A DNA stretch of 64,000 bases from a bacterium (GTDB lineage Bacteria; Margulisbacteria; WOR-1; O2-12-FULL-45-9; XYB2-FULL-48-7). Under the pieces are notes generated by a model. It searched no databases. It worked only from the letters and a program-made list of their open reading frames with translations, and had not been told where the DNA came from. The stretch is taken from positions 1 through 64,000 of the forward strand of contig JBDRLW010000003.1 of NCBI GenBank assembly GCA_043812655.1. The letters run 5' to 3'. The translations under genes were made by a program, and so were the position numbers. Below, piece after piece: positions 2,693 through 57,259 of the stretch. Each line of letters opens with the position of its first letter. Position 1 is the first letter of the stretch.

Positions 2693-4560
2693 ATAATTGA
2701 CCCCTTAAAACTCGGGATCATCTCTTTTATTTTTCCTCTTATCTCCGCTTTTTTCCCTGCTCGCGCTAACTGCTCCAATAGTTTAACATTCTCCGTCAAT
2801 TTATTGTTAGCTATATCCAGTGATGGAGAAATAAATATTTTCTCATGTTTTGTCGTCTTTCCACCTTCTTCACTGGTCAAGATCTCTTCAAACAGCTTTT
2901 CTCCAGGTTTAAGGCCAATAAACTTTATTTCTATGTCTACCCCTTCTTCTAAGCCAGATAGCCTGATCAAATCACGAGCCAGGTCAACTATCTTGACCGG
3001 TTCACCCATATCCAAAATAAACAACTCGCCTCCACTCCCCAAAGCGCCGGCTTGGACAACTAATTGAGCCGCTTCCGGGATCGTCATAAAATATCGTTTT
3101 GCTTCCGGATGAGTAATGGTTATTGGCCCACCGGCAGTAATCTGCTTTTTAAAGATCGGCACAACACTGCCACGGCTCCCCAGCACATTACCAAATCTAA
3201 CCGAAACATATTTTGTTTTTGACCCTGTTTGTGACTTTGCCTGCACAATCATTTCCGCCAATCTCTTTGTTGCTCCCATGATACTACTCGGATTAACAGC
3301 CTTATCTGTCGAGATCATCACAAATTCCTTAACCTGATAACGATCGGCCAAATCAACAAGATTTCTAGTGCCAACCACATTGTTTAATATGGCCTCATCA
3401 GGATCACGCTCCATCAACATTACATGCTTGTGCGCAGCCGCGTGAAAGACGACCTCCGGTTTAACATTTTGGAAGATATTACTCATACGGTCAATATCAC
3501 GGATATCAGCAATATGAACCGCTAGATCAAGAAAAGGATAACGACCCTTTAATTCGTTTTCAATATCAAAGATACTGTTCTCCCCTTTCCCGATCAATAT
3601 AAGTTTTGCGGGGTTATAAGCAGCTACCTGTCGGCAAAGCTCTGAGCCAATAGAACCGCCAGCGCCGGTTACCATCACGGAAGAATTGGTCAAATATGAG
3701 GAGATGCTTTCCATGTCTAGCTTAATCGGGTCACGGCCAAGCAAATCTTCGATCTCAACATTTCTAATCTGATTCACATGCACAGTCCCATCAATTAATT
3801 CAAACATTCCCGGAACAATCTTAAATTTTGCGCCGCTTTTTTCGCACAATTCAACAACATGTCTGATCTGCTTGTGAGTCGCTCTCGGCATGGCAATAAT
3901 AACCTCATCGATACCATTGGCTTCAACAATCAGTGGTATACTCTCACAATCACCAAGCACCGGCAGATGATGAATAAATGTCCCTTTCTTGCTAGGATTA
4001 TCATCAACAAAACCGATTGGCCGGTATTTTAATTTGGGAAGCTTTTGGATCTCACGAAGGATCATCTCCCCTGCATCTCCCGCTCCGACGATCAAAACTC
4101 TTTGCTCTTCGCCAGTCCGGCTAATTAAAGAATGTGTCTCTTTCCAATAACGGATAGCCAGACGCATCCCACCGATCAAGGCAAAACAAACCAATCCCTC
4201 AACAAAAAAAATGGCTGGTGAGAATGCGCGGCTGCCAAAAATAATCACCGTTGCGGCCAATAGTACTGTGCTCAAAATAACCGCCTTGATCAGAGCAACA
4301 ACCTCCCTAACGCTCATATATTGCCAAGCCCAATGGTAAAGCCCAAAATTACGAAATGTACCAATACGAAAGGCAATGCTAAGTAATAGAACCCACCAAA
4401 ACCGGTTTAAAAGAGCCACCGTCCCAAATAGACCTGGACCGGTTAAAAAATAGAAAGCCAAGATCATGGAAATTATCATCGATATAACATCGCTTATAAC
4501 CAGAAGGCTTAGCTTGTAGCGCCTTACCAGATCAAGCGTAAAACAATAAAGTCTATCCAT
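2689..4560 (-). CDS. Membrane-anchored nucleoside-diphosphate sugar 4,6-dehydratase (PglF/CapD/WbpM family)
   Basis: N-terminal TMs, GAGDAG, TGAGGSIGSEL, STDKAVNP, MGATK and RFGNVLGSRGSV; start at MDRL is my choice. Confidence 0.92.
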   Translation of the reverse strand: MDRLYCFTLDLVRRYKLSLLVISDVISMIISMILAFYFLTGPGLFGTVALLNRFWWVLLLSIAFRIGTFRNFGLYHWAWQYMSVREVVALIKAVILSTVLLAATVIIFGSRAFSPAIFFVEGLVCFALIGGMRLAIRYWKETHSLISRTGEEQRVLIVGAGDAGEMILREIQKLPKLKYRPIGFVDDNPSKKGTFIHHLPVLGDCESIPLIVEANGIDEVIIAMPRATHKQIRHVVELCEKSGAKFKIVPGMFELIDGTVHVNQIRNVEIEDLLGRDPIKLDMESISSYLTNSSVMVTGAGGSIGSELCRQVAAYNPAKLILIGKGENSIFDIENELKGRYPFLDLAVHIADIRDIDRMSNIFQNVKPEVVFHAAAHKHVMLMERDPDEAILNNVVGTRNLVDLADRYQVKEFVMISTDKAVNPSSIMGATKRLAEMIVQAKSQTGSKTKYVSVRFGNVLGSRGSVVPIFKKQITAGGPITITHPEAKRYFMTIPEAAQLVVQAGALGSGGELFILDMGEPVKIVDLARDLIRLSGLEEGVDIEIKFIGLKPGEKLFEEILTSEEGGKTTKHEKIFISPSLDIANNKLTENVKLLEQLARAGKKAEIRGKIKEMIPSFKGSII

Positions 4561-45729: not shown

Positions 45730-46638
45730 CTAATTGGCGGCTATCTTATGCCAATATTCTTGAATAAATAAGAAGAACACGCCAGCAAATAATCCGAGCG
45801 CCACCCCGATCATCACATTCAATTTAGTCCGTGGCCTACTCTTCGACTCTGGTTTTTCAGCTTTATCAACTACGGAAAAAGGTGGGATTTCTTTTGAAGC
45901 CTCAAGCTTGTTAGATTCCTTTTCCCGGCGCAACATAGTGTAAATAGAATTATATATCTCATAATCTCTTTGCAACCCACTTTGCCCCCCACCGAGAGGA
46001 CTCCCTACAGAAGATAGCGGAACTAATTTCAATTTATCTTCAACTACTTTTAAATCCTTCTCCACTCGTGGCAACTCCTGTTCAATATATTTAAGTTTTT
46101 TTTGAGTTTCGGTAAAATTAAGCTCATTCCAATAATACTCTATAGCACTAATAAAACCATCGGCAACATCGGCCGCCAGCTGCGGTTCATTCGCTTCAAC
46201 CTTAAGCTCTAAGATATTCCCATTCATTTTTGGCGGTTTCAGCATCCCTCTAACCGCTAAAACCAGATTTTTCCTTTTAAGTTTTGGGTTATCCCACCCT
46301 TTTATTCTTTTGGTTAGATCAAGATCGTCAAGCACCTTAGCCGCTACTACTTTACTTTTTAAAAGTTCCGTAATGTCTCCCGCTCCTCCTCCTCCTCCTC
46401 CTCCTAAATTGACACCCAGCATGCTAGCCATCCCAGCATATTGCGATAAATTCCCGCCACCGCCCGAGCGGAATAAAAGAGTCGTTTTAGCTTCATAAAC
46501 CAGCGGCTGCCTAAAGCTATAAAATAAAGCCGCAATCGCAACAAATAATGTTACAAGCGCGATCGTTTTCCATTTTTTTAATATTACTTCAAGATATTCC
46601 CGCAAGTCAATTTCGTCGTCGTAAGATTCATTTGTCAT
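45730..46638 (-). CDS. Wzz/GumC-type chain-length determinant
   Basis: DDEIDLREY, two TMs and VVDKA..P..KS.P; contains a (GGA)7 poly-Gly tract at 46384-46404. Confidence 0.85.
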   Translation of the reverse strand: MTNESYDDEIDLREYLEVILKKWKTIALVTLFVAIAALFYSFRQPLVYEAKTTLLFRSGGGGNLSQYAGMASMLGVNLGGGGGGGAGDITELLKSKVVAAKVLDDLDLTKRIKGWDNPKLKRKNLVLAVRGMLKPPKMNGNILELKVEANEPQLAADVADGFISAIEYYWNELNFTETQKKLKYIEQELPRVEKDLKVVEDKLKLVPLSSVGSPLGGGQSGLQRDYEIYNSIYTMLRREKESNKLEASKEIPPFSVVDKAEKPESKSRPRTKLNVMIGVALGLFAGVFFLFIQEYWHKIAAN

Positions 46639-46654: not shown

Positions 46655-46786
46655 AACTTATGAACTTAGGAACTAAAGAACGAAAAAACTTAGAAACTAA
46701 GGGACTAAAGAACTTAAAGACTTAAAACCAAGGGACTAAAAAACCAAAGAACTTAAAAAACAAAAGAACCTAGGAACTTAAGAACT
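46655..46786 (+). repeat. Degenerate 8-mer tandem array (about 16 units, AACTWARG-like)
   Basis: aacttatg aacttagg aactaaag aacgaaaa aacttaga aactaagg gactaaag ... Confidence 0.9.
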
Positions 46787-47176
46787 GCGAGTCATGCCAT
46801 CCTTGCGAACTCTAGATGTAAAAGCTTTGAGTTGGCGGAAAATGTTTTCCGCTTTACTTAAGTACAATTTATGGTCAGCATCAATAATGTATCCATCGTC
46901 CAATGCCGCGTCCAAACAAGCCACCACTTCACCAACCGAAGTTAAAGCTGTATTGAGAAATCTGCTAAAATCAACATCCGAATATCTTTCCGATCCTTCG
47001 GCAATATTTAGTAGGATTGAGTCCATGGCTCGCCATAATTGTGAAGTTAAACAATATTGTTCTTCTTTAGGGAATTTTTTCTTGCTTAATTGTTTTAATC
47101 CAACCCTAAATTCGCGAGCATCTTTGTATACCGGAAACTCTCTAAATCTAAATACGCTTATTGTTTTTTCGTTCAT
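46778..47176 (-). CDS. Four-helix-bundle protein (23S rRNA-IVP / Avd-like family)
   Basis: F....VY, FPKEEQY.LTSQL.RA..SI..NIAEG, F.RFL..A..S..E and GY. Confidence 0.9.
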   Translation of the reverse strand: MNEKTISVFRFREFPVYKDAREFRVGLKQLSKKKFPKEEQYCLTSQLWRAMDSILLNIAEGSERYSDVDFSRFLNTALTSVGEVVACLDAALDDGYIIDADHKLYLSKAENIFRQLKAFTSRVRKDGMTRSS

Positions 47177-47226
47177 AAGTTCATAAGTTTATCAGTTTAT
47201 AAGTTCTTCAGTCTTTCCGTTCTTCA
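47171..47226 (-). repeat. 8-mer tandem array, inverted relative to 46655-46786
   Basis: gttcataa gttcataa gtttatca gtttataa gttcttca gtctttcc gttcttca. Confidence 0.85.
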
Positions 47227-47860
47227 TGATAAAATCAATTACCCGACCAAACGAATCATCAATGAACCGTTGGTCACGGTAAGTTATTAGTTGCTTTAGC
47301 TCTGGCTGATAAACATCTTTTATGAGTTGGCAACGCTCAAGCAATATTGGCAATTTCCCCTTAAAAACATCTAAATTCGCGATAAGCTTCTCCCTATCTT
47401 CATCTATCACTACTGCCAGGTCAAAAATATCCCGGCTTTTAAACTGTTCCGCCCGATAAAATATTTTTTTGACTATTATCTCCGGCGGGGTTTCAATGTT
47501 GATTTGATAACGTCCAACCTTCATCTTTCCAATTGGCTCCTTGGTCAAATAAGGAGCGGCAATAAAATCAATAAAAACATCACCCTTTAACTTTATTTTG
47601 AGATAATTAGATTGTTCTTCCGCTCCAGCATAATCCTTGTCGCTTTCCACATGATCATTTAAACGTGGCGATAAACACGTTAAATATTGTACGTCGGTCA
47701 AAAAAATGTCTATGTCCTTACTGTAGCGGTGATGATAATAGGACATCAACGCCGTCCCTCCGCCAAACGACCATTTATTGACCGGTATTTGTGCTGATTC
47801 CAGGTAAGCAATAGCTTTCAATAAAATTTTTTCCCACTTTTCAGTTCTATTATTTAGCAT
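47192..47860 (-). CDS. AbiEii/AbiGii-family nucleotidyltransferase toxin
   Basis: FGGGTAL...HRYSKDIDIF, KK and RDIFDL. Confidence 0.85.
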   Translation of the reverse strand: MLNNRTEKWEKILLKAIAYLESAQIPVNKWSFGGGTALMSYYHHRYSKDIDIFLTDVQYLTCLSPRLNDHVESDKDYAGAEEQSNYLKIKLKGDVFIDFIAAPYLTKEPIGKMKVGRYQINIETPPEIIVKKIFYRAEQFKSRDIFDLAVVIDEDREKLIANLDVFKGKLPILLERCQLIKDVYQPELKQLITYRDQRFIDDSFGRVIDFIMKNGKTEELIN

Positions 47861-48128
47861 ACTTGAAATACTCCTCGAACATAAGGTTGCGATAATATTT
47901 TCTCACGTTTTTTTTATAATAATTCAATGTTTGTAGCGCCGTCAACTTATGTTTCTTAATAAAACTCAGGATCGTGCTTAATGGTAATTCCGTAAAAAAA
48001 GCAAAGATATGGGCGTAATACTCGGCTTTCAATAAACCACTTCGAATGAGAGCGGCCGCCGTTTCCTCAGAAATCGGCTTTTTAACTGAAATATTGATAA
48101 TGGAAAACAATGAATTATCTTTTTTCAT
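47850..48128 (-). CDS. Small protein, putative antitoxin partner
   Basis: 92 aa overlapping the toxin start; function inferred from position. Confidence 0.6.
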   Translation of the reverse strand: MKKDNSLFSIINISVKKPISEETAAALIRSGLLKAEYYAHIFAFFTELPLSTILSFIKKHKLTALQTLNYYKKNVRKYYRNLMFEEYFKYAK

Positions 48129-48135
48129 TTTTTCA

Positions 48136-48208
48136 GTTCCTTCGTTCTTTGGTTCTTTAGTCCTTTGGTCTGTTCTTCCTCTTCACCATTCATTATTCAC
48201 GATTCACT
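48136..48208 (-). repeat. Third 8-mer array (48136-48167) plus a 7-mer ATTCACN array (48181-48208)
   Basis: gttccttc gttctttg gttcttta gtcctttg; cttcacc attcatt attcacg attcact. Confidence 0.75.
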
Positions 48209-48219
48209 TAATCCTTACC

Positions 48220-48268
48220 ATGGCTCGACAGGCTCGCCATCCCAGCCATCCCGAGCTCAGTCGAGGGA
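48220..48268. repeat. Intergenic CTCGAC/GCTCG double-hairpin repeat
   Basis: Homologous to the queE insertion at 1191-1238. Confidence 0.9.
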
Positions 48269-48285
48269 CTTACTACTTAATCTTT

Positions 48286-49119
48286 TTACTTCTTAATCAC
48301 GCTATATAACGTCAAGCCAAGCATGATCGTATTAACAAAGCCGGCAAAATCGGAAAAGTAAAAGAAATTCCCTGGGACATTAATCACATCGCCCCCTAGT
48401 ATTTCCACATCATTTTTCGAGTCCCCATCATAAATGATCCTTGAGGCATTGATATATTTTTTATCAGGTTTTCCGTTTGCCTGCCTGGCAATTGTCACCG
48501 AGCCTAAAAGAGCCTTGGGGCTTGGCCCGCCGGCAAAGCTGATATAGTCAGACAACTTTTTACCTGGCAAATATTCAAACCGTCCAACCTTGTTCACTTC
48601 CCCATAAACGGAAACGTATTTTTTTTCGCCCATAAAAACCGGTTGGGCGCTATCCCCTGTCGCGTAGATATTAACCATTCTCGGTTGGATCAGCCGAAAC
48701 GAAAAAACATATTTTTCCTTGTACCCGCTTTTTATTTTTTTATCGATCGCTTTTTTGGCTTCAACAATAGAAAGTCCAAGCAGGTTGATCGCCCCAACTT
48801 TTGGGAAATAAATTGTCCCTCCCGGTTCAATCGTAAATATCTGATCGAGAGACATTTCATCTTCTCCAATGATCAGATTAGCAGAAACTATATCGCCAGG
48901 GCCAAGCTTATAGGTATTAACATCGATCGCGTCACCAACATAATCAGAAGTTACTGGCAAGCTAGAAGCTGGATTAGCCGCCGCATAAGCCCTTTTAACA
49001 TCAGGAATTTGAAACCCCGAGTTTTTTAGATCATCCAAATTAACAGCAAAAATCGGAGAGCTCAATAAAATTATATTAATAACAAGAAAACTAGCTATAT
49101 GCTTGATGATCTTTTTCAT
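48286..49119 (-). CDS. Polysaccharide export protein with SLBB domain (Wza/KpsD-like)
   Basis: Signal peptide, YKLGPGD, VYGEV..G, AGG and GDVINVP. Confidence 0.82.
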   Translation of the reverse strand: MKKIIKHIASFLVINIILLSSPIFAVNLDDLKNSGFQIPDVKRAYAAANPASSLPVTSDYVGDAIDVNTYKLGPGDIVSANLIIGEDEMSLDQIFTIEPGGTIYFPKVGAINLLGLSIVEAKKAIDKKIKSGYKEKYVFSFRLIQPRMVNIYATGDSAQPVFMGEKKYVSVYGEVNKVGRFEYLPGKKLSDYISFAGGPSPKALLGSVTIARQANGKPDKKYINASRIIYDGDSKNDVEILGGDVINVPGNFFYFSDFAGFVNTIMLGLTLYSVIKK

Positions 49120-49167: not shown

Positions 49168-49812
49168 TTAGCCTGCCTCCTTGATCTTGTTGCGGAAAAA
49201 AGCGGCAATAGTCTTTGGTGCAGCCGGCTGTTCGCTTAGGTAACGAAGCTTTTCATCGACAACAATATCACCAGTAAATGCCAACTGCTCCAGGAACATC
49301 CGCTCGCTAAAGACCTCTCCATATTTCTTTTTGGCTATATCAGTTATTTGATCAAGCGCGAGAAAATTATTTTTTACCATGACATAAAGATCAAAATAAT
49401 CACGGTAATTACCGCGTCGGCCCAAAGCATATGCCTTGGTCGCCGCGATATCCTTGATCGATAATAACGGTAAATTTCCTGTTGTTTTCACCAATGGAAA
49501 AAGCGGTCGCCAATAATAATTCAAGAGCGTAATTTTAATATTGCCATCTAGAACTATTGTCAACTCATCAGCCGTATCGACTAGAGTGGTAAGATGATAT
49601 TGGCGCAGTCCGCCCAGAAGTTTTCTTTTAACGGCAAAGGTAATATCCTTATCACGAAAAAGGTCGAAATCGAGTGACTCACGATGTCCTATCTGCAAAG
49701 CTAAAGCCGTACCACCGGCTAGATAATAATCATGGCCTAATACTTTATTGAGCCTGGAAAAAACTGTCTTTCTTTCCGGATCAAGTATTTTCCAAAATAA
49801 TTTTTTATTCAT
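49168..49812 (-). CDS. AbiEii/AbiGii-family nucleotidyltransferase toxin
   Basis: YLAGGTALALQIGHRESLDFDLF, K..A..RR and RDYFDLY. Confidence 0.88.
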   Translation of the reverse strand: MNKKLFWKILDPERKTVFSRLNKVLGHDYYLAGGTALALQIGHRESLDFDLFRDKDITFAVKRKLLGGLRQYHLTTLVDTADELTIVLDGNIKITLLNYYWRPLFPLVKTTGNLPLLSIKDIAATKAYALGRRGNYRDYFDLYVMVKNNFLALDQITDIAKKKYGEVFSERMFLEQLAFTGDIVVDEKLRYLSEQPAAPKTIAAFFRNKIKEAG

Positions 49813-49815
49813 TAT

Positions 49816-50052
49816 TTATGCAAACAAAGCCTTAGCGAAAGGCAAGATACTTTTTCGGCTGAATTGCCTGCCATGTTTTTTGGCAAAATTATAGACCGAT
49901 TTCCTTCCCAATTTCTTTGCCAAATAACGCAAATGTTCCATCCTTCCTTTTTCCAAAGCCTGGAAGAGGATCGTATCCCTGTCCTTTTCCAGGGACATTT
50001 TATCAAAATCAGCAAACCATAAAATTGACTTGAAATATAACGGCAGTCTCAT
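49816..50052 (-). CDS. Putative antitoxin (DUF6922-like)
   Basis: 78 aa with LW..D...D...I....LE.G pattern, directly upstream of AbiEii. Confidence 0.7.
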   Translation of the reverse strand: MRLPLYFKSILWFADFDKMSLEKDRDTILFQALEKGRMEHLRYLAKKLGRKSVYNFAKKHGRQFSRKSILPFAKALFA

Positions 50053-50056
50053 GATA

Positions 50057-50070
50057 TTATTTTACCAGAT
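50057..50070. repeat. 14-bp direct repeat (copy 2), the lhgO 3' end
   Basis: TTATTTTACCAGAT, identical to 49141-49154. Confidence 0.75.
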
Positions 50071-51163
50071 TTTCAAGATACTTTCCAATCGCCAAACAAC
50101 TTGTCAACCCGGGACTCTCTATCCCAATCAAATTAATAAACCTTGGACAACCATTTTCTTTCTCTTCCTTGATCACAAAATCCCTAAACCCATCGTTTGG
50201 ACCTTGAAGTTTTGGCCGCATTCCCGCTGTATCTGGCGCCAGCATCGCTTCATCGACCCAAGGCAAATAGGTTTTAACCGCTTGATAAAAATCTTTCCTT
50301 TTAGCTGGATCTACATCATAATAAATTTTTTCGACATATTCAGTATCCGGCCCCAGTCTAATGTACCCATCAAGATCAAGAGTAGCATGCACTCCAAGCC
50401 CATGTCCCTGTTCATGCGGCACCGGATAAACCAGATGGTTTAATTTCCCTTTAGACCCAGTTACCCCGAAATAATCACCTTTACAATAATAGAGCCTGTA
50501 ACCAAGCTTATCAATATCAAACCCGGCTAACTGCGCCATTTTATCGGCGTTTAAACCAGCACAGTTGATCACCCATTCACTCTGAATACTTTCCCCATTC
50601 TGATCAGTTAAAACATACCCATCCCCTTGTTTCTTTATCTCTTTTGTCTCGCTTCCAAACGCGAACATAACCCCGTTCTTCTCGGCTTTTTTATTTAAGC
50701 AATCCATTAAACCATGAGAATCAATGATCCCCGTCGAACCGGAAAAAATACCGTTCAACGCAAAAACATTTGGTTCGAGAGCCAAAACATCTTCTTTTGT
50801 CAATAATCTTAGATCAGGGACCCCAACCGAAACAGCATTATTATAAATTGATTCTATTTTTTTGGCTTCAGCTTCGTTGGTTGAAATAATTATCTTGCCG
50901 CATTTTTTATGCTTCACACCATTTTCCGCACAAAACTGATATAAAAGTTTGTTACCTTGAAGACATAAAAGACTTTTCAATGAGTCTTTAGGATAATAAA
51001 TCCCAGCGTGGATAACTTCACTATTGCGGCTGCTAGTCTCTTGGCCAAAGCTATCATGCATCTCAAAAACTACGATATCGCCATCAATTTTTTGTGATAA
51101 GGCTTCGGCGATCGCAAGTCCAATAACGCCGGCTCCAATTATTGATACTTTGACATTGTCCAT
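50057..51163 (-). CDS. lhgO: FAD-dependent oxidoreductase (L-2-hydroxyglutarate oxidase-like)
   Basis: GAGVIG, TSSRNSEVIHAGIYY, KGDYF, LGVH and GIESPGLTS. Confidence 0.85.
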   Translation of the reverse strand: MDNVKVSIIGAGVIGLAIAEALSQKIDGDIVVFEMHDSFGQETSSRNSEVIHAGIYYPKDSLKSLLCLQGNKLLYQFCAENGVKHKKCGKIIISTNEAEAKKIESIYNNAVSVGVPDLRLLTKEDVLALEPNVFALNGIFSGSTGIIDSHGLMDCLNKKAEKNGVMFAFGSETKEIKKQGDGYVLTDQNGESIQSEWVINCAGLNADKMAQLAGFDIDKLGYRLYYCKGDYFGVTGSKGKLNHLVYPVPHEQGHGLGVHATLDLDGYIRLGPDTEYVEKIYYDVDPAKRKDFYQAVKTYLPWVDEAMLAPDTAGMRPKLQGPNDGFRDFVIKEEKENGCPRFINLIGIESPGLTSCLAIGKYLENLVK

Positions 51164-51165
51164 AT

Positions 51166-51585
51166 TTACCCCATCTGTCCCGCCTTCGGCGGGACATCTT
51201 CCCCTTGGTAAGGGGAAGAATATAAGGAATTATCAATCTTATCTCGAATACTAGCAATCACTTGTTCAAGATTATTAAAAACCTCTTCATTTGTAAAACG
51301 AATGAAATTGATTTCTAAACATTCTATCAATTTCTGTCGTGCTTTATCATAATTGCGTTGATTTCTACTAAGATGATAACCACCATCAATTTCAATTCCC
51401 AACCTGACTTCTGGTGAATAAAAATCAATCACAAAACCCTTAATGCTATATTGTCTTCGGAACTTATGCCCATTAACTTTTCGTTTTCTTATTTGTTCCC
51501 ATAATATTTTCTCGGCTTCCGTCATATTCTTACGCAGTATTTGTCTTTTTTCTCGATCACGACTTCTATTATATATCTTTGTCAT
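51166..51585 (-). CDS. DUF559 (Vsr-like) endonuclease
   Basis: LRK.MT.AE..LW, KFRRQ, IDFY, IEIDG..H, YD..R and RF.NEEV. Confidence 0.9.
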   Translation of the reverse strand: MTKIYNRSRDREKRQILRKNMTEAEKILWEQIRKRKVNGHKFRRQYSIKGFVIDFYSPEVRLGIEIDGGYHLSRNQRNYDKARQKLIECLEINFIRFTNEEVFNNLEQVIASIRDKIDNSLYSSPYQGEDVPPKAGQMG

Positions 51586-54888: not shown

Positions 54889-56014
54889 GTCTCGACTCAC
54901 TTCGTTCGCTCGACATTAAACTTGCGAAGTCATTAAACAAGTAATGGGCATCATGCGGTCCTGGTCCCGCCTCCGGATGATATTGGACAGAAAAGATCGG
55001 TAAGGTTTTATGTTTCATCCCTTCAACTGTCTTATCATTTAAATTAATGTGGGTCAGCTCGACCGTTCCTTTGGGAATGGAATCGATATCAACAGCAAAC
55101 CCATGGTTTTGGGCAGTGATAGCCACTTTTCTCGTCTGCAAATCCATAACCGGTTGGTTGCCGCCATGATGGCCAAACTTTAATTTATAGGTCTTGCCGC
55201 CTAAAGCTAGCCCTAACAATTGGTGTCCCAAACAGATCCCAAAGATCGGTTTCTTCCCGATTAGTTGTTTAATATTTTTGATCGCGTAAGTCACCGCCGC
55301 TGGATCAGCTGGCCCGTTAGACAGGAATATCCCGTCTGGATTCATGGCCATGACTTTTTCCGCCGGAAAATCGGCGGGGACAACAGTGACTCGACAACCC
55401 GCCGCAACAAGATTATTTAGAATACTAAACTTGATCCCATAATCATACGCCACCACATTAAATTCAGGCTTTCTACATTCATTGGTCATTGGAAATTGGT
55501 CATTGGTCATTTTCCACTCATGCGGCTCTTTACAAGTAACGGTCTTAACCAGATCAACCCCTTCAACTCCCTGACAATTTTTGGCTCTCCTTATCAAATG
55601 CCTTTCATTTAAATCAACTGTCGAGATTATTCCTTTCAAAGAACCCTTTGTCCGCAGCCGCCGAGTTAACATCCGGGTATCGATCCCTTCGATCCCCACG
55701 ATCCCATATTTTTTAAGATAGTCGCCAAGCCCGCTGGTCGAGCGGAAATTTGAAGCTATCCTTGAATTTTCCCTGACAATAAAACCTTCGCATTGGGGGA
55801 TGGTCGACTCCAGGTCTTCTTCATTAACACCGTAATTGCCGATCAAGGGGTAAGTCATCGTTACGATCTGGCCTTTGTAGGAAGGATCGGTCAAGATTTC
55901 TTGATAACCAGAAAGAGAGGTATTGAAAACGATCTCCCCGCTCTTCTCACCCTCGGAGCCAAAAGAGCGACCATGAAAAACCGTCCCATCTTCTAAAGCT
56001 AAAACTGCTTTCAT
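54881..56014 (-). CDS. carA: Carbamoyl-phosphate synthase small subunit
   Basis: [21 protein letters not shown] and QYHPE; start MKAVL. Confidence 0.97.
54887..54916. repeat. CTCGAC/GCTCG hairpin repeat in the carA 3' end
   Basis: 54889-54914 is 25/26 identical to 59707-59732. Confidence 0.85.
55479..55513. repeat. Heptamer tandem repeat inside carA
   Basis: tcattgg tcattgg aaattgg tcattgg tcatttt. Confidence 0.85.
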
Positions 56015-56098: not shown

Positions 56099-56923
56099 TC
56101 AAACTGAGAAGATCTCAACCCCACTATCAGCAGTTTCAACATAATAACTTCGACCATATTCTTTGCGGATCTCGCGTAATTTTTTATCATCAGCCGGGAA
56201 ACCAAAGACGCTCGAGCCACTTCCCGACATCTGCGCAAAAGTACAACCCAATTCCAGCATTCGATCCTTAACTTTTTGAATGACCGGATATTTCTTTATC
56301 ACTACAGATTCTAAATCGTTCTTACTACCTTCATTTTTCATTTTGCATTTTTCATTTTTCATTTGACTCTCATCCCATGCGTCATATGCCCATTTTGTAG
56401 AGACCTCAACTTCAGGAATTACTAAAAGGTAATTACGCGTTTCGTTTAACGTATTACGCGTTACCCTTTCCCCCCGCCCCTTCACCGTACAATTCCCCCC
56501 CATAATGCAAAAAGGAACATCGGAACCGATCTTAGCGCCTACGACCATTAGCTCTTCCTGGCTAAGCTTCTTACCATATATATTATTAAGGCCGACCAAA
56601 ACCGCGGCGGCATCTGCCGAACCCCCAGCCAGCCCTGCCCCCACCGGGATCTGCTTCTCAATATATATCTTTATTCCGCTACTCCCTACCCCCTGCACCC
56701 TAAAAAACTCTTCTGCCGCCTTATAAGCTAAATTCTTATTATTAGTTGGTAGCTGTAAATTGGTCGTAATGACTTCAATGCCGGAGTCAATTGGAGTTAA
56801 TGTAAGAGTATCAAAAAGAGTGACCGACTGCATGACCGACTCGAGTTCATGGTAGCTATCTTGGCGAGTCCCCAGGATTTTAAGCGAGAGGTTGATCTTG
56901 GCAAAAGCTTTAAGCTTCAGCAC
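56099..56923 (-). CDS. ispE: 4-diphosphocytidyl-2-C-methyl-D-erythritol kinase
   Basis: AKINL.L, GAGLAGGSADAAA, GSDVPF and MSGSGS. Confidence 0.96.
   Translation of the reverse strand: MLKLKAFAKINLSLKILGTRQDSYHELESVMQSVTLFDTLTLTPIDSGIEVITTNLQLPTNNKNLAYKAAEEFFRVQGVGSSGIKIYIEKQIPVGAGLAGGSADAAAVLVGLNNIYGKKLSQEELMVVGAKIGSDVPFCIMGGNCTVKGRGERVTRNTLNETRNYLLVIPEVEVSTKWAYDAWDESQMKNEKCKMKNEGSKNDLESVVIKKYPVIQKVKDRMLELGCTFAQMSGSGSSVFGFPADDKKLREIRKEYGRSYYVETADSGVEIFSV
56330..56364. repeat. Heptamer tandem repeat inside ispE
   Basis: ttcattt ttcattt tgcattt ttcattt ttcattt. Confidence 0.85.
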
Positions 56924-57199
56924 TTATTTGTTTTTGTTAAAAGCGATCATCAAGCGTGATTTCAAGCGGGCTGCTTTATTCGCATGGATGATCCCGCGTT
57001 CGGCCGCTTTATCAAGGATAGAAACAACTTGCTTCAGTTTATCGGCCGCCTCGGCAATTTTACCAGTGATCGCGGTCCTGGCAGCCTTAATGGCTTTCTT
57101 TATGGTATCTTTTTCTTTGATATTGCGTGCGCGCCGCTTCTTGGTCTGGCGGACGTTCTTAATTCCTTTTCGTTTAACAACTTTTTTCTTTTCTGCCAT
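56924..57199 (-). CDS. rpsT: 30S ribosomal protein S20
   Basis: RQ..KRR.RN and LDKAA..GIIH.NKAAR.KSRL; AGGAG RBS. Confidence 0.95.
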   Translation of the reverse strand: MAEKKKVVKRKGIKNVRQTKKRRARNIKEKDTIKKAIKAARTAITGKIAEAADKLKQVVSILDKAAERGIIHANKAARLKSRLMIAFNKNK

Positions 57200-57229
57200 T
57201 TTTCTCCTCCTAAACAGGATCAACTACAA

Positions 57230-57259
57230 TTGACATGATAACACAAATAATAGTAAAAT
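57230..57259 (+). promoter_or_regulatory. Sigma70 promoter for accD
   Basis: TTGACA, 18-bp spacer, TAAAAT. Confidence 0.5.

Follow-up and report, generated by a model that had tools for sequence, protein, structure and literature searches.

A four-helix-bundle gene between inverted tandem-repeat arrays in a polysaccharide-export operon of a WOR-1 bacterium, a candidate for an intervening-sequence-type cassette outside rRNA

The window analysed here (64 kb; positions 1 to 64,000 of contig JBDRLW010000003.1, assembly GCA_043812655.1, from a WOR-1 bacterium) contains a small gene for a four-helix-bundle (4HB) protein, which lies between arrays of short tandem repeats of opposite polarity in a spacer of a polysaccharide-export operon. 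The spacer is 1647 nt long and separates a Poly_export/SLBB polysaccharide export gene (48286..49119), the host gene 5' of the module, from a Wzz/GNVR chain-length determinant gene (45730..46638), the host gene 3' of it; both were assigned with Pfam, and both, together with all genes of the spacer, are on the minus strand. In the order of transcription the spacer holds a leader array, C' (48129..48210), a 92-aa open reading frame (ORF; 47850..48128) that overlaps the start of the following gene, an AbiEii-family nucleotidyltransferase gene of 222 aa (47192..47860) resembling the toxins of toxin-antitoxin (TA) systems, a 5' array, B' (47164..47230), the 4HB gene itself (132 aa; 46778..47176), a 3' array, A (46655..46790), and the ribosome-binding site and start codon of Wzz, downstream of which a polysaccharide biosynthesis cluster of ~46 kb continues entirely on the minus strand (Pfam). 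The flanks of the element are, by Pfam, protein genes (AbiEii and Poly_export/SLBB upstream, Wzz downstream) and not a 23S rRNA helix (45 or 25). For Rho, the best matches, at 88-91% identity, carry the names Margulisbacteria, Saganbacteria or candidate division WOR-1. Among 63 of the 64 ORFs of at least 80 aa in the window (all except the ORF at 56892-57233 on the plus strand) and two shorter ORFs, Pfam detected no reverse transcriptase (RT), transposase or integrase, in agreement with a first-pass annotation of this locus, which had described a module with no transposase or RT in cis.

As delimited by Tandem Repeats Finder (TRF), the repeats have a period of 8 at 46655-46786, 47171-47212 and 48136-48169 and a period of 7 at 48182-48207, so that C' consists of 8-mers with 7-mers upstream of them. 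Splitting the three arrays manually into units resolved A into 16 degenerate 8-nt units of the type GTTCTTWA on the gene strand, which fill the spacer from the 4HB stop codon to the Shine-Dalgarno sequence of Wzz (start at 46638). Array B (47164-47227) comprises eight units, of the type GTTCATAA when read on the plus strand and inverted relative to A; on the gene strand, as B', it is of the TTATGAAC type, purine-rich and the inverse of A. Array C has four to six units of the type GTTCTTTG on the plus strand, and C', which like B' is forward and purine-rich in polarity, reaches up to the ATG that opens the 92-aa ORF. The arrays also run into the genes: the first unit of A contains the 4HB stop codon (46778-46780), the last units of B' contain the 4HB start codon (47174-47176), and B' encodes the stop and last 11 codons of AbiEii (47192-47227, MKNGKTEELIN). 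The arrays, the overlaps with the 4HB stop and start and the toxin C-terminus within an array had all been described in the first-pass annotation, and TRF and the unit split bear each of these out. The window has six arrays with a period of 7 or 8 and three or more copies, totalling 296 nt (longest 132 nt), compared with a mean of 0.47 (maximum 2, longest 31 nt) in 40 first-order Markov simulations, which makes the real arrays ~13 times commoner. Four of the six are in the SLBB-Wzz spacer. The other two are heptamer arrays that lie in frame within the essential genes carA (55479-55511) and ispE (56330-56364), purine-rich on the coding strand, and encode 11 residues and the peptide MKNEKCKMKNE, respectively; alignment to solved homologues places both in variable linker or loop regions, with no net insertion.

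The 4HB protein matches PF05635 (23S_rRNA_IVP; E 1.7e-25, 89.7 bits, cut-off 33.8) and TIGR02436 (E 7e-24, 84.1 bits, cut-off 24), and its sequence matches PDB entry 2gsc (E 8e-12). In Foldseek comparisons, its AlphaFold2 (AF2) model (pLDDT 89.5) superimposed on 2GSC (XCC0516) with TM-scores of 0.82/0.92, an rmsd of 1.0 and 33% identity, and on 2RLD with a TM-score of ~0.72; both of these solved relatives have five chains. The model also matched Avd, the accessory protein of diversity-generating retroelements (DGRs; 4DWL, TM 0.74-0.91), with TM-scores by query length of 0.71-0.76 and 8-9% identity for 4DWL and the 8UBE/8UB7 complexes. The first-pass annotation had related the family to Avd, and the fold match to 4DWL as well as a statement to the same effect in PMC10053308 support it. 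A conserved family motif, GxxRxxxSxxxNxxE, is given in PMC3936711 (this and the other papers are cited by PMC accession for what excerpts of them state), and the corresponding R49, S53, N57 and E60 are invariant across 32 sequences, while the position of its leading G is occupied by Q in the window clade, where Q46 is invariant. A tblastn search of the window with 20 family members returned a single 4HB gene; a tblastn search of 50,697 phage records with the 4HB protein gave no match, and neither did PADLOC. The dN/dS of the 4HB gene was 0.10-0.15 wherever dS was unsaturated and could be estimated, and the protein is under purifying selection.

To place the arrangement in a wider context we compared 28 loci with complete flanks, namely the window, 11 loci on genome contigs (L001-L011) and 16 on plasmids (L013-L028), a further locus (L012) being excluded as cut at a contig end. 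Besides the window, the collection had 12 species-genome loci (L012 among them), eight cyanobacterial-plasmid loci obtained with the window protein and eight more obtained with the protein of L010; relatives of the window 4HB protein at 66-81% identity come from proteins and contigs with the labels WOR-1, Omnitrophota, Saccharibacteria, Parcubacteria, Dehalococcoidia and others. Copies are also present on plasmids of Nostoc/Anabaena PCC 7120. Each gene was scored by the best ungapped match of its 150-nt upstream flank to the reverse complement of its 150-nt downstream flank, and this score was set against those of 200 shuffles (L022 being scored from a corrected start codon). By this measure the 4HB gene ranks first among 63 window ORFs (14.0; next 11.0; median 7.5), which, with the unit split, confirms that the module is bounded by repeats of inverted polarity, as first proposed. 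Across loci, the inverted match exceeded all 200 shuffles in 22 of 28, spread over about nine phylum-level groups; the first-pass annotation had staked its proposal on an enrichment of repeats near homologues, and such an enrichment is what we found. On visual inspection, almost all of the genes are preceded by a purine-rich tandem array that reaches the start codon and followed, from the stop codon onwards, by its reverse complement, with a unit that varies between lineages. A cassette consisting of a 5' purine-rich array, a PF05635 ORF and an inverse 3' array recurs across phyla.

Individual loci show further arrangements. L016 is an exception, with ~16 AAAGCTA units upstream (1300-1500) and ~10 AAAGCCA units downstream (1852-1960) in direct orientation and a short inverted block further upstream. 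The WOR-1 genome locus L001 has gene-less arrays of the AAGAAC family at 1921-2003 and 3097-3215, and also at 3794-3849, in which forward and inverted arrays abut as hairpins, the same 21-nt sequence following both hairpins; these arrays interleave with nucleotidyltransferase (NTase)/HEPN and HicAB cassettes, each preceded by a repeated GC-rich motif ending in TATAAT. L004 carries two copies of the cassette (1184-1534 and 3992-4375) 2.8 kb apart, each before a paralogous membrane-protein ORF and each with a promoter-like box, TGGTATAAT, directly 5' of its array, and judging by these boxes some cassette copies may bring or use a promoter of their own.

Both the repeat unit and its period vary with the protein clade: units recur every 8 nt in the window and in L001-L006 and every 7 nt in most other loci, and two Nostoc plasmids have different units paired with different proteins. 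A Mantel test (19 loci, L011 dropped) correlated protein identity with the sharing of array 6-mers at r = 0.32, a value reached in one of 2000 permutations. Between the window and L001 the synonymous sites are saturated (pS 0.98) and yet an AAGAAC array core is common to both, which argues for arrays that are constrained or homogenised.

The cassette is inserted or absent as one block between adjacent genes and lies mostly sense to the host operon. Clean cases are the homologous plasmid operons of Nostoc sp. C052 (L018) and Nostoc sp. ATCC 53789 (L020), which are 91-99% identical: L018 has a cassette of the GAGTCAG type between the second and third genes, where L020 has a 3-nt spacer, and L020 has a different cassette, of the GGGAAAA type, one junction further on, where the stop and start codons of L018 overlap (TAATG). 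The arrays are, in both plasmids, inside the inserted block and the insert starts directly after the upstream stop codon; a target-site duplication is not evident in L018 and is at most the size of an ATG in L020. The first-pass annotation had proposed a mobile or regulatory module; mobility is supported by these filled and empty sites for the cassette as a type, and they do not extend to movement of the window copy itself. On two cyanobacterial plasmids (L016 and L027) the cas6-cas4 spacer holds cassettes with different units, whose proteins are 44% identical whereas the cas4 DNA is 72% identical, and at L014 a cassette lies in the cas10-cmr3 spacer. The junctions occupied elsewhere include those of pilB/pilC (twice), enolase/phosphoglycerate mutase (eno/gpmI), ATP synthase gamma/beta (atpG/atpD), ruvC/galT, parA/parB and ribonucleotide reductase subunits, in addition to cas10/cmr3 and cas6/cas4 (twice). 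The 23S_rRNA_IVP family has been reported within cas loci (PMC3936711 and a figure legend of PMC10910872, both in excerpt), and from the junctions listed here this published 'CRISPR association' may reflect insertions between cas genes rather than a shared function. Among 23 loci with both neighbours known, 19 cassettes are co-oriented with both, three are antisense to both (L017, L019 and L024) and one is mixed (L011); for 19 against 3 we calculate a one-sided binomial probability of ~4e-4.

One of the plasmid cassettes is in an rRNA gene. L022, on plasmid AZO_p2 of Azospirillum lipoferum, is a genuine 23S rRNA gene (LSU_rRNA_bacteria, 1266.9 bits) in which the cassette takes the place of a hairpin loop at model positions ~1206-1226, its ORF being flanked by GACGGAT/GACAGAG heptamers and their inverse. 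This is the design of the intervening sequence (IVS) in the 23S rRNA of Coxiella, in which, according to the excerpted text of PMC4990558, tandem GACAGAT heptamers precede an S23p ORF, a 28-bp stem arises from the terminal inverted repeats and RNase III cuts at the first repeat; the same source presents the IVS as a mobile element whose ORF serves mobility as a long-standing idea. In the window, too, an S23p-family ORF lies within terminal inverted repeats able to form a stem, as in an IVS, and the design shared by L022 and the Coxiella IVS therefore argues that the window element is the same type of element within another host RNA. Its closest known relative, the 23S rRNA intervening sequence, was overlooked in the first-pass annotation.

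Overall, we consider that the core at 46655-47230 is, on balance, probably an IVS-type selfish cassette in the spacer of a polysaccharide-export operon. A promoter and terminator scan found no site in the AbiEii-4HB-Wzz spacers and nothing specific to the cassette, the nearest promoter-like match (9/12) being within the AbiEii coding sequence, and the window cassette would have no promoter of its own and be transcribed by read-through. In the transcript the arrays would pair, whatever the register, to give a long imperfect duplex around the ORF. The predicted RNA duplexes of B' with A (-48.7 kcal/mol) and of C' with A (-60.7 kcal/mol) were each matched by none of 200 shuffles, and in the minimum free energy (MFE) fold of the whole spacer (1661 nt) A pairs with B' (48 bp) and, via its outer part, with C' (37 bp). 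By analogy with rRNA IVSs, RNase III would cut the stem formed by the arrays and leave the host RNA split yet functional, which would explain why such an element is tolerated both in rRNA and between cistrons. The conserved, Avd-like, probably pentameric protein would recognise its own arrays and serve the spread or upkeep of the element; the first-pass annotation had inferred that it binds or propagates the repeats, and what speaks for this is the agreement between repeat unit and protein clade. The enzyme that integrates it would not be encoded in cis. In a matrix of RNAduplex energies between the 150-nt flanks of different loci, the cognate pair was among the top three in 15 of 20 cases, with energies inflated by long loops, for which reason the ungapped inverted-match test took the place of this matrix.

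Several observations weigh against this reading. Having been picked by homology with two query proteins, the loci do not sample PF05635 at random, and six of the 28 fail the strict inverted test: in L001 and L016 the downstream array is direct, L026 is without arrays, and L009, L019 and L028 are borderline, with 1-4 of 200 shuffles doing as well. The agreement between unit and protein could be plain co-inheritance rather than recognition. Arrays of the same family also occur without the gene (C', the hairpin arrays of L001, and those in carA and ispE) and so are not exclusive to the cassette. At the RNA level, sense duplexes had no advantage in stability over antisense duplexes (11 of 20 loci, Wilcoxon p = 0.35), and therefore the arrays could act as DNA only; the fold of the whole cassette was only weakly better than that of shuffles (z = -1.44). 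Finally, the ORF of the Coxiella IVS is, according to PMC4990558, probably not expressed.

Some of these observations are what one would expect if the 4HB protein were a domesticated regulator, the arrays being scattered host cis-elements for mRNA stability, translation or processing and the protein a trans-acting binder that autoregulates its own gene, much as in the pairing of REP sequences with RAYTs described below, with nothing selfish about the element. The arrays without a gene (the leader of the TA pair, carA, ispE, and in L001 the hairpins and the leader arrays behind TATAAT boxes) would be further targets of such a regulator, purifying selection on the protein is in keeping with a host function, and the upstream arrays extend as far as start codons, which TAACTGA repeats also do in the excerpt of PMC4679880. 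A host regulon, however, sits less well with a gene and arrays that are present or absent as a block in otherwise identical Nostoc operons, with an insertion into 23S rRNA, with a protein identity of 66-76% between different phyla and with the different cassettes in the same cas6-cas4 spacer, all of which a mobile element fits better. We therefore regard a regulator as unlikely, while taking it seriously as the alternative that survives best.

Less likely again is a DNA transposon or miniature inverted-repeat transposable element (MITE), of which the arrays would be the terminal inverted repeats and the 4HB gene a passenger, with the transposase encoded elsewhere and RNA structure playing no part. 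Inverted termini, the clean boundaries of the Nostoc inserts, the lack of strand asymmetry in duplex stability and the lack of a recombinase in cis among the scanned ORFs are all compatible with this explanation, which nevertheless appears doubtful to us: a passenger would not be expected to stay constant over about nine phylum-level groups while the termini change with it in sequence and period, there is no consistent target-site duplication (none evident in L018, ATG-sized in L020), and the bias of 19 to 3 towards sense insertion points to a role of transcription.

The AbiEii pair raises the question of whether the 4HB gene belongs to a three-gene TA or defence operon, in which it would be the functional partner of AbiEii and the arrays would be incidental. 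The AbiEii protein matches PF08843 (E 4.5e-12, 46.8 bits, cut-off 22.5) and the AbiEii models of PADLOC, and the position of the 92-aa ORF suggests that it is the antitoxin; this ORF matches no Pfam, NCBIfam or PADLOC family, and the AbiEi-type regulator of an AbiE pair was not recognised. AbiEii and the 4HB gene are direct neighbours on one strand with 15 nt between them, the C-terminus of AbiEii being encoded by an array, and members of the 4HB family are reported in cas loci in the excerpts of PMC3936711 and PMC10910872 already cited. A TA pair between the arrays was, however, found at the window locus only (1 of 28), the neighbours elsewhere being unrelated housekeeping, cas and par genes; the 4HB protein is without a PADLOC match; and a second AbiEii pair in the window has neither a 4HB gene nor arrays. 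We consider such an operon very improbable, and the AbiEii pair probably does not work together with the 4HB protein. The first-pass annotation had the pair as cargo, which it may be; the likeliest reading is a second small cassette whose landing site was in or beside the 5' arm of the first. The predicted 1661-nt fold, which nests the TA pair in an outer loop within the C'-A stem, is compatible with its landing in a formerly continuous 5' arm but falls short of proof, since other loci often have arrays of unequal length.

The second AbiEii pair (49168-50052) lies just upstream of the SLBB gene and consists of AbiEii and an ORF weakly matching DUF6922, so that two TA pairs flank the first gene of the polysaccharide cluster. 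A comparison of the 92-aa ORF with the DUF6922 ORF revealed no similarity, and a recent duplication of the AbiEii pairs was rejected, as a 24-residue motif is all that they have in common and the small ORFs are unrelated. Further upstream, a DUF559 or restriction-endonuclease-like ORF (51166-51585) lies between a DAO-family oxidoreductase gene (50057-51163) and carB. A GC-rich element of 47 nt with an internal GGGATGGC doublet and inverted ends is present in two window copies with 87% identity, one between the SLBB gene and C' (48220-48266) and the other (1191-1237) within the coding region of a radical-SAM ORF (671-1411).

That the gene is the remnant of a DGR (an Avd that has lost its RT), or the arrays chance simple repeats of a repeat-rich genome, is close to refuted, since the Avd-like fold and the other heptamer arrays of the genome, which might suggest as much, are outweighed by the absence of an RT among the scanned ORFs, by an identity of 8% to Avd against 33% to the IVS-type protein 2GSC, and by arrays that are far above simulation and recur near homologues.

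For the IVS-type cassette, a bolder version can be put forward, which we offer as speculation and hold to be rather improbable. The PF05635 protein would be the sole element-encoded factor of an undescribed kind of DNA movement, in which the pentamer would read the arrays and recruit a polymerase or RT, of the host or provided in trans, that copies the excised stem-loop RNA into DNA or builds arrays through repeated rounds of copying. The heptamer and octamer arrays of cyanobacteria, their sister phyla, Xanthomonas and others, including those of the kind seen in carA and ispE, would be seeded by this activity, which would also lie at the origin of the rRNA IVSs.

More generally, one and the same cassette links the origin and spread of ORF-bearing rRNA IVSs, a question since the early 1990s, with the function of the family annotated as 'four helix bundle protein', and it bears on the meaning of short heptamer and octamer arrays in cyanobacteria and other phyla and on the reports of 'CRISPR-associated' members. 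It would be a gene-carrying mobile unit of ~0.5 kb without a recognisable recombinase and a natural system in which to test the action of an Avd-like protein away from DGRs. In annotation, genes of this kind within operons are to be seen as insertions rather than as members of the pathway.

How does the element compare with known systems? Avd is a nucleic-acid- and RT-binding cofactor of DGRs, and the window protein shares with it (4DWL, 8UBE) the four-helix-bundle fold, with five chains in the 4HB relatives 2GSC and 2RLD; unlike DGR Avd, to which it is 8% identical, it has no RT family beside it among the scanned window ORFs, and to our knowledge no Avd gene is bracketed by tandem arrays. In REPtrons, genes for REP-associated tyrosine transposases (RAYTs) are flanked by inverted repetitive extragenic palindromic (REP) sequences, and REPs are also scattered genome-wide. 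The window element resembles a REPtron in that a gene is bracketed by inverted short repeats, that copies of the repeat occur elsewhere and that the repeat follows the protein lineage. It is unlike a REPtron in that the bracketed gene encodes a small helical bundle (PF05635) and no HUH/Y1 nuclease fold, that the repeats are tandem 7-8-mers and not palindromic REPs, and that the whole unit is inserted or absent as a block.

Cyanobacteria are also known for short tandemly repeated repetitive (STRR) sequences, which are arrays of heptamers, and the bolder version above would count them among the arrays seeded. In the excerpts available, TAACTGA repeats are described from Beggiatoaceae, Cyanobacteria and Bacteroidetes (PMC4679880) and GGGAATC repeats from Xanthomonas, with 70-75 convergent pairs (PMC4692102). 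The arrays analysed here agree with what these excerpts describe in having a period of 7-8, in being mostly intergenic, in often reaching up to start codons and in sometimes forming inverted pairs or being intragenic. The difference is that the gene is here the constant partner of the arrays, whereas the excerpts of PMC4679880 and PMC4692102 mention no link to PF05635. A literature search of full texts likewise found no link between PF05635 genes outside rRNA and flanking tandem arrays.

The likeness is closest to the ORF-bearing IVSs in helix 45 of the 23S rRNA of Leptospira, Coxiella and others, with which the window element shares the protein family ('S23p'), the tandem repeats before the start codon and the terminal inverted repeats around the ORF. 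Such IVSs are transcribed as part of the host RNA, as the window element presumably is by read-through, and the cutting by RNase III reported for the Coxiella IVS is carried over to the window element by analogy. Unlike rRNA IVSs, the window element lies between protein-coding cistrons, its unit is 8 nt long and its arrays are far longer (16 units as against 3-4), and whereas the ORF of the Coxiella IVS is reported to be decaying (PMC4990558, in the excerpted text), the window protein is under purifying selection. The element is therefore best filed as a known type, the intervening sequence of rRNA, in a new place: the same cassette outside rRNA, in the spacer of an mRNA operon.

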